Assembly (NCBI RefSeq): GCF_055900595.2
Contig: NZ_CM148325.1
Reading direction: 5' to 3' (one strand)
DNA: 64,000 bases
Shown here: positions 58,447-58,950 of the stretch, piece by piece
How positions within the stretch are numbered: the first letter of the stretch is position 1
Layout: each line of letters opens with the position of its first letter
Translations under genes and position numbers: made by a program
The notes under the pieces: generated by a model
The model's database searches: none
Seen by the model: only the letters and a program-made list of their open reading frames with translations
Told to the model about the DNA's origin: nothing

Positions 58447-58950
58447 CCTTCATGCACTGATAAGCCTCACTAATAGGAGTGTTAGCAGCGCGTACCACTG
58501 TATGCTAGACCTGAAAAATATAATCTCAGTCAGTCCCAGATGCAACCTTTAACACTTCAACGCAACAAATTAAACAACGAATAGCCACAAACGTGTAGAC
58601 AGTGCACTGATACGGATAAAAGTAACGCTCCTGAATTGCTCAATCAATGATATATACCCTGTTTTACTGACATATCTGACAGCGGGTGGATTTCCTTCAA
58701 TTATTGATATAACACCACACGCACTACATCTGTCTCCACCAGAATATGAGGTGAAATTGTTGCGCACCGGTTAATCCGGGTGTACTGGTCAAACTGTTTT
58801 TACGGTGCGCCTGTTTTATAGCCTTCAGTTGCGCAATGCGTCGACTTCGCATGGTTTTCCTCATGACTGCCGCTTTACCATTGCGCAATTCGCCGATGTA
58901 GTCGGTGCCCCCCGGAAAATCAAACGGTTCTGGTTGTTCTCTGTACTGCT

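Follow-up and report, generated by a model that had tools for sequence, protein, structure and literature searches.

The DNA analysed is a stretch of 64,000 nucleotides from contig NZ_CM148325.1 (assembly GCF_055900595.2), hereafter called the window. Its source is an E. coli chromosome, and 16 complete E. coli genomes matched window positions 58300-59100 over the full length at 97.6-99.9% identity. In the carrier genomes the locus is flanked on one side by an autotransporter gene of the ECSE_1600 family together with hipBA, and on the other side by a fimA-type fimbrial operon. Between them are found the gene of an unnamed LRR protein, one for an ankyrin-repeat protein, and a number of partial pseudogenes of HTH, IS481 and hydrolase types; the host site of the LRR gene is a variable, fast-changing island that extends from hipBA to the fimbrial operon. 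The subject of this analysis is the 504-nt gap at 58447-58950, which separates the stop codon of the minus-strand LRR ORF (58951-60477) from a strong hairpin with a U-run at 58446-58414. Both boundaries were found where the original prediction had placed the LRR stop and a minus-strand terminator, and the DNA from the stop to the hairpin carries no RefSeq annotation in any carrier genome. The features of the locus are listed in Table 1.

Table 1. Features in and around the gap downstream of the LRR gene (window coordinates).
Feature	Position	Strand	Basis or native setting
LRR ORF, 508 aa	58951..60477	-	Homologous to NEL-type E3 ligase effectors in its N-terminal domain and LPX-type LRR array
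Junction zone of LRR-derived and RT-derived DNA	58995..59060	-	Weak RT-like similarity in another frame: RPAGRTLGTLAVRLIMNPRGLA versus RDARECLEALKQRLDRFGLKVH
Segment C, internal piece of a group II intron RT/maturase gene	58799..58994, probably to about 59060	-	blastn and tblastn
Segment B, orphaned 218-bp intergenic region	58581..58798		Native site: from gajA start (-) to SEC-C-domain gene start (+)
Segment A, leader spacer, 134 bp	58447..58580		Native site: from the 186-aa hypothetical gene to the HTH gene (+)
Predicted intrinsic-terminator hairpin, GAGAGGGC...GCCCTCTC then UUUUU	58414..58446	-	Scan and folding; kept in all leader copies
3' remnant of the leader's 186-aa hypothetical gene, 5' part deleted	58233..58378	+	Window 58233-58580 = L003 5934-6281
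Candidate small transcription unit, ~97 nt (speculative)	58415..58545	-	Hexamers, inferred start near 58511, hairpin 58491-58454, terminator

A sensitive blastn search was performed with 58447-58950 as the query against 5,426 complete E. coli genomes and 72,556 plasmids. The results showed that the query divides into three parts, each with its own distribution. Query positions 1-134 (segment A) were present in well over 100 of the 227 matching E. coli genomes at 76-95% identity, positions 135-352 (segment B) in E. coli chromosomes and plasmids as well as Klebsiella and Raoultella plasmids at 87-95% identity, and positions 353-504 (part of segment C) in carriers of the LRR island only. A local blastn map placed the joints with base precision at 58580/58581 (A/B) and 58798/58799 (C/B), so that both the composition of the stretch and its joints are matters of observation. 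We conclude that 58447-58950 is very probably relic DNA, made of three unrelated fragments that were joined by illegitimate recombination in a fast-changing E. coli island. Read on the minus strand, the order downstream of the LRR array is the RT fragment, then a region from upstream of a Gabija operon, and finally a leader spacer with its terminator. The stretch is distinguished by its composite origin, but it holds no surprise for a specialist, being common genomic debris of which every part can be named. Its notable points are limited to the LRR ORF's tail of out-of-frame intron DNA and the candidate small transcription unit in the island leader. Around 58447-58950 the match was uninterrupted and ~99% identical across all carriers for 0.99-1.1 kb, reaching into the ORF and the leader remnant. 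Because the carriers are ~99% identical, constraint within the lineage is unmeasurable and the order of the rearrangements is not reconstructable; because they share one end and a 99% identical flank, the truncation of the LRR gene is older than the sampled diversity. It had also been stated that the gap holds no ORF of 60 aa or more, but a mechanical 65-aa ORF with a GTG start (58570-58767, -) sits inside it. This ORF crosses the A/B joint and is therefore chimeric, and it matched zero Pfam families.

Segment C lies next to the LRR stop and was identified by both DNA and protein comparison. In blastn, window 58994-58799 matched L018, an intact group II intron on a Salmonella plasmid, at 81% identity over 211 columns (E 5e-57), and the DNA match terminated exactly at the C/B joint. 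When the L018 RT was compared with the whole window by tblastn, its residues 370-441 aligned with window 58969-58766 at 67% identity (combined E 4e-20), and a second HSP in another frame joined residues 340-370 to window 59060-58968 at 45% identity, including the string PGKTRLLR. The fragment covers the end of the RT domain and the start of the X domain, leaving the IEP incomplete (residues ~340/370-441 of a 526-aa relative), and it is damaged by a 1-nt frameshift near 58970 and a 15-nt deletion. The original prediction had quoted a peptide from one frame of the gap and had suggested that it could be eroded coding sequence of a missing effector domain. The peptide does exist, in minus-strand frame 2, but '...AHRKNS' is not followed by a stop: this frame remains open over 24 further codons to 58724, and '...HRKN' marks the end of the reverse transcriptase homology at the C/B joint (58799/58798). 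The impression of decayed coding sequence was correct, whereas the gene it came from is a group II intron RT and not NEL (tblastn E 4e-20). In tblastn the peptide itself hit a plasmid of Salmonella diarizonae (68% identity, E 4e-18), and it also matched annotated ltrA and group II intron RT/maturase genes at 42-45% identity around residues ~350-405, in the C-terminal third; some of the matched genes carry the name 'retron-type' RT.

The class of the intron was assigned through the Salmonella relative. Its ORF (L018 3891-5471) scored 340 bits with TIGR04416, the equivalog profile of group II intron RT/maturases with a cut-off of 300 bits, and the group II intron D1-D4 RNA (RF02005) was found at 164 bits directly upstream of the RT ORF. 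By these sequence profiles, the relative of segment C in L018 is a bona fide group II intron. Within the window, tblastn with the L018 RT found no other RT pieces in the 64 kb, and no intron ribozyme domains were detected by Rfam, whose scans covered 56000-64000 with E up to 1 and the whole window at gathering score. The RT fragment was present in 17 of the 5,426 complete E. coli genomes, in one copy each and always in this island, and none of the 17 carriers held a DNA-level relative of it elsewhere. The Salmonella record was the sole match among plasmids in the DNA search, and a protein search for a nearer relative yielded a single 117-aa Salmonella fragment (63% identity). Orphan group II intron fragments within mobile elements are reported to be common in Enterobacteriales (Leclercq & Cordaux 2012, PMC3522654). 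Segment C resembles the fragments of that report (PMC3522654) in being truncated at both ends, frameshifted, located in a variable island and without a full-length counterpart in the same genome. It differs from them in that it keeps ~200-260 bp of the ORF interior with neither a ribozyme domain nor an intron boundary, and in that it is fused to a host gene, to which it gives the last codons and the stop in another frame.

The fusion was then delimited from the side of the LRR gene. Pfam found only LRR_4, LRR_1 and LRR_8 in the ORF. The LRR protein aligned with the NEL proteins P0056 and P0059 at 36-49% identity over residues ~87-481, and its homology to NEL effectors stopped at residues ~474-481. 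The repeat pattern finishes at ...LPPS, about 59053, and DNA homology to the prophage NEL locus L010 stops at 59074. Together, the ends of the LRR and NEL homologies and the RT match bracket the joint between LRR-derived and RT-derived DNA to 59056-58994. The LRR stop codon (58951-58953) and at least 14 last codons consist of RT-derived DNA read in a different frame, and the number of such codons rises to about 35 when the weaker upstream tblastn HSP is counted. Since the RT fragment runs into the LRR ORF, the last 14 to about 35 codons and the stop are out-of-frame RT DNA. We propose that an RT fragment of about 200-260 bp, frameshifted and without ribozyme domains, took the place of whatever lay after the LRR array, and that it would thereby have provided the ORF with an accidental C-terminal tail and a stop codon. 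A 'hypothetical protein' with a tail of intron DNA is thus encoded in 17 complete E. coli genomes and in many draft assemblies. The C-terminus of this LRR protein is not to be taken as a functional tail, and the DNA downstream is no place to mine for an effector domain. Within the array (window 59060-59776), 60-nt units cross-match at 72-82% identity; the number of LRR units differs among strains, giving proteins of 339-531 aa.

Like the NEL-type E3 ubiquitin ligases of the IpaH/SspH/SlrP family, the adjoining LRR ORF combines an N-terminal domain with an LPX-type LRR array, and outside the truncated E. coli group its closest relatives (36-49% identical) are NEL-domain proteins from E. fergusonii and E. 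coli prophages. Because the N-terminal domain and the LRRs are common to the LRR protein and the NEL ligases, a lost C-terminal domain is a fair premise. The gap could then hold what erosion has left of a NEL (novel E3 ligase) domain formerly part of the LRR protein, and both the homology of its N-terminal domain and LRR array to NEL effectors and the protein-like appearance of one reading frame speak for this. That frame, however, is explained by the RT (E 4e-20), and segments A and B have independent, non-effector origins. A tblastn comparison of eight NEL proteins with the region, a check proposed together with the idea of an eroded C-terminal effector domain, yielded chance-level matches only, the best inside the region having E about 6. 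Neither blastn nor tblastx against the NEL loci L009 and L010 found anything past 59074, a Pfam search up to E 10 was empty, and a custom NEL HMM reached a best score of -1.5 bits, against a mean best score of -0.95 +/- 1.0 for shuffled sequences. At the sensitivity of these sequence and profile searches (tblastn, blastn/tblastx, custom NEL HMM with shuffle control, Pfam), a NEL remnant is refuted, and we regard this explanation of the gap as extremely improbable. On the strand of the LRR gene, no catalytic Cys motif (CxD) was found downstream of the array; the sole 'SCTD' string lies on the opposite strand at 58450-58464, inside segment A, which genomes without the LRR gene also have. Unlike the IpaH/SspH/SlrP family, the LRR protein therefore has no NEL domain in its ORF nor a remnant of one downstream.

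In the preferred reading, that of a mosaic of relics, the NEL domain was presumably lost in the rearrangement that imported the RT fragment. No allele with both LRR and NEL was found at this locus, so that the loss is deduced from distant relatives (36-49% identity). The joint between the LRR array and the intron fragment illustrates concretely how rearrangement in a defence-island hot spot could have deprived an effector-like gene of its catalytic domain. The NEL relatives themselves lie in phage surroundings: the E. coli relative (L010 5050-8952) is located in a prophage between the Q antiterminator and the holin/lysis genes, which is the position of Shiga toxin in Stx phages, and in E. fergusonii (L009 6001-10886) two NEL genes stand in tandem beside phage lysis genes.

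Segment B was traced to the upstream region of Gabija (gajA-gajB) loci of E. coli and Klebsiella, which have the same 218 bp at 87-95% identity. In the four fetched loci, native segment B starts 48 bp upstream of the minus-strand gajA and ends 80 bp before a plus-strand SEC-C gene, and its homologues are always unannotated, whether in E. coli chromosomes and plasmids or in Klebsiella and Raoultella plasmids. The operon of L008, a locus on an E. coli plasmid, was recognised by PADLOC with 791 bits for GajA and 636 bits for GajB. Window 58265-58580 corresponds to L008 3-318, and window 58581-58798 corresponds to L008 4001-4218; the jump in L008 coordinates from 318 to 4001 identifies an exact 3,682-bp deletion of the HTH gene, gajB and gajA at the A/B joint, which shows a microhomology of 1-2 bp (GA). 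Compared with the Gabija loci, the window lacks gajA and gajB, neither of which is present anywhere in it, and the SEC-C gene on the far side of segment B has also been replaced. Segment B thus represents the region upstream of a Gabija operon whose genes were deleted. In strain MFDS1022581 an IS2 element has inserted inside segment B, at the equivalent of window 58635-58640 (L004 4672-6000, with a 5-6-bp target duplication). The possibility that segment B is specially conserved was considered and rejected: its identity between L008 and L007 was 89.5%, against 93-98% for gajA, gajB and the SEC-C gene. Scans of the plus strand gave a promoter-like site at 58676-58704, which may be the orphaned SEC-C promoter and was at chance level, and a weak terminator-like hairpin at 58836-58852 in the RT fragment, with site counts near shuffle expectation. 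Together the two chance-level sites could yield a short plus-strand transcript antisense to the 3' region of the LRR gene.

Segment A and the hairpin belong to a conserved leader of three genes, encoding an HTH protein of 110 aa (-), a hypothetical protein of 182-186 aa (+) and an HTH protein of 98 aa (+), which was seen in loci L003, L007, L008, L021-L026 and L046. At its native site segment A follows the 186-aa hypothetical gene (+) and precedes the 98-aa HTH gene (+), while the 110-aa HTH gene lies divergently upstream. The part of the leader retained in the window is 57809-58580; the HTH gene to the right of segment A is gone, and the remnant of the hypothetical gene is marked as a partial CDS (58233-58378) in strain 2013C-4282. 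The hairpin resembles Rho-independent terminators in having a G+C-rich stem followed by UUUUU on the minus strand. Its predicted free energy was -26.1 kcal/mol (z -4.7), none of 200 shuffled sequences was as stable, and the stem has a G+C-rich 8-bp core extendable to about 20 pairs, so that a stable G+C-rich hairpin stands directly before the U-run at 58446-58414. Since segment A and the hairpin are native to the leader in other genomes, the terminator is the leader's and not the LRR gene's; the predicted terminator at 58446-58414 differs from an ordinary one in being borrowed, as part of a module that more than 200 genomes carry in the absence of the LRR gene. The final 134-bp spacer and the strong terminator accordingly come from the HTH/hypothetical/HTH leader of defence islands, and non-coding leftovers such as this spacer and the Gabija upstream region can be read as a record of the site's earlier occupants.

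The cargoes that accompany the leader in E. coli chromosomes and plasmids were varied. They comprised GajA/GajB; a gene with a HamA C-terminal domain together with a DEAD/DEAH helicase, or such a helicase on its own; type I R-M accompanied by an M48 peptidase; a very large ATPase; and an exonuclease paired with an MPN protein. The HamA-domain gene with the helicase is a possible Hachiman system. The three ORFs of the leader were also found in Klebsiella grimontii, and in ABWA45 an integrase lies upstream. The three-gene leader has the appearance of a regulatory end shared by a family of mobile islands that carry defence genes.

The borrowed terminator bears on the possibility, raised in the original prediction, of a long 3' UTR. 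Past the LRR stop, the minus strand has a single terminator-like site, the hairpin at 58446-58414, and the LRR mRNA would cross segments C, B and A as an accidental 3' UTR of ~540 nt before ending there. As judged from the sequence, a long 3' UTR for the LRR gene is plausible in this accidental sense. In E. coli, Rho could also end a transcript with a long untranslated tail early. In a stronger version, the long 3' UTR formed by the stretch would be functional and under selection, serving for instance as a regulatory target or as a stability element of the LRR mRNA. The location of the first minus-strand terminator-like site 505 nt past the LRR stop fits such a function, as does the 99% identity of the flank in all carriers. 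This identity is nonetheless no sign of selection, because the match continues unbroken for 0.99-1.1 kb into the ORF and the leader remnant. Moreover, the supposed UTR is made of three unrelated relics, an insertion of the 1.3-kb IS2 was tolerated, and the RNA has no excess structure (z +0.63). We therefore consider a functional 3' UTR improbable and retain the reading of the stretch as joined relics, crossed by an accidental transcript.

A small RNA had been suggested as a further possibility. For the whole 504 nt this was not supported: the folding of the RNA was no better than that of shuffled sequences (z +0.63), and in the Rfam scan of the whole window at gathering score 58447-58950 was without a match. 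At E up to 1 over 56000-64000, the only Rfam matches were two of noise level to miRNAs, on the terminator hairpin. A sub-piece of ~97 nt within segment A does have an sRNA-like anatomy. On the minus strand, the promoter-like hexamers TTGCAT (58545-58540) and TATATT (58522-58517) are separated by a 17-nt spacer and stand ~95 nt upstream of the hairpin at 58446-58414, an arrangement like that of terminator-defined small RNAs.

The comparison of leader copies showed that the conservation of segment A is not random. In 10 copies of 76-95% identity, TTGCAT and TATATT were invariant and the spacer between them was variable, and the hexamers were also present in the Klebsiella grimontii copy. The internal hairpin at 58491-58454 was kept in each lineage with different stem sequences (z -2.0 to -5.9), its stem forming a perfect 11-bp run in Klebsiella grimontii. 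On the basis of the invariant hexamers and the kept hairpin, segment A may not be inert. It is conceivable that this part of the stretch encodes a genuine minus-strand sRNA of ~97 nt, running from a promoter at 58545-58517 to the terminator at 58414, inherited from the leader and intact in the window. In addition to the invariant hexamers amid a varying spacer, the Klebsiella grimontii copy and the hairpin maintained with lineage-specific stems, this proposal draws on the strong terminator ~95 nt downstream, whose U-run is on the minus strand only and which natively has no minus-strand gene directly upstream to serve. Several points, however, weaken the proposal. Read on the plus strand, the bases of the TATATT hexamer give a perfect TATAAT (58519-58524) that faces the HTH gene missing from the window and could be the promoter of that gene; the conserved palindrome could be an operator for the HTH proteins. 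No Rfam family was matched, and covariation was weak, RNAalifold on 9 closely related sequences giving a covariation term of -0.36 with 2 compensatory pairs. A scan for the segment-A motif with one genome per species returned 24 matches, of which 1 was a true copy (Klebsiella grimontii), while the remaining 23, in non-enterobacterial genomes, were taken as chance by record title; with this single further copy, the diversity is too low for a real covariation test. We thus regard the sRNA as a tentative candidate that is unlikely on the present balance of evidence.

This candidate small transcription unit in the conserved island leader is nevertheless the sole element of the stretch with discovery potential. 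If true, it would be an undescribed sRNA of a leader that precedes many defence cargoes in E. coli and Klebsiella, among them Gabija, possibly Hachiman, and type I R-M. The sRNA would then survive intact in the window, and its terminator would also end the LRR transcript.

The surroundings of the LRR gene contain further features. The minus-strand HTH gene of the leader has its C-terminal part at 57809-58233, and an N-terminal part with its promoter lies at 60722-60899. A 69-bp duplicate (91% identical) at 58171-58239 and 60722-60790 flanks the LRR segment, and both copies derive from one part of this HTH gene. The paired copies suggest that the LRR block entered by recombination between HTH paralogues. 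A 64-aa ORF of the MbcA/ParS/Xre antitoxin family (Xre_MbcA_ParS_C domain) lies at 57807-58001 (-), with no adjoining partner toxin gene evident; beside it is a 145-aa ORF (57228-57665, +) that is marked as frameshifted in other strains. The ankyrin-repeat protein gene of the island (657 aa, 61170-63143, +) is divergent from the LRR gene, and neither of the two proteins matched a PADLOC defence model. The main text of a paper on defence hotspots of E. coli (PMC10121019) makes no mention of hipB, yneL, ydeT or ydeQ. Elsewhere in the window, Rfam matches at gathering score identified the Hfq-binding sRNAs STnc560 (24544-24757, +; 280 bits) and STnc490 (8633-8756, +; 146 bits).
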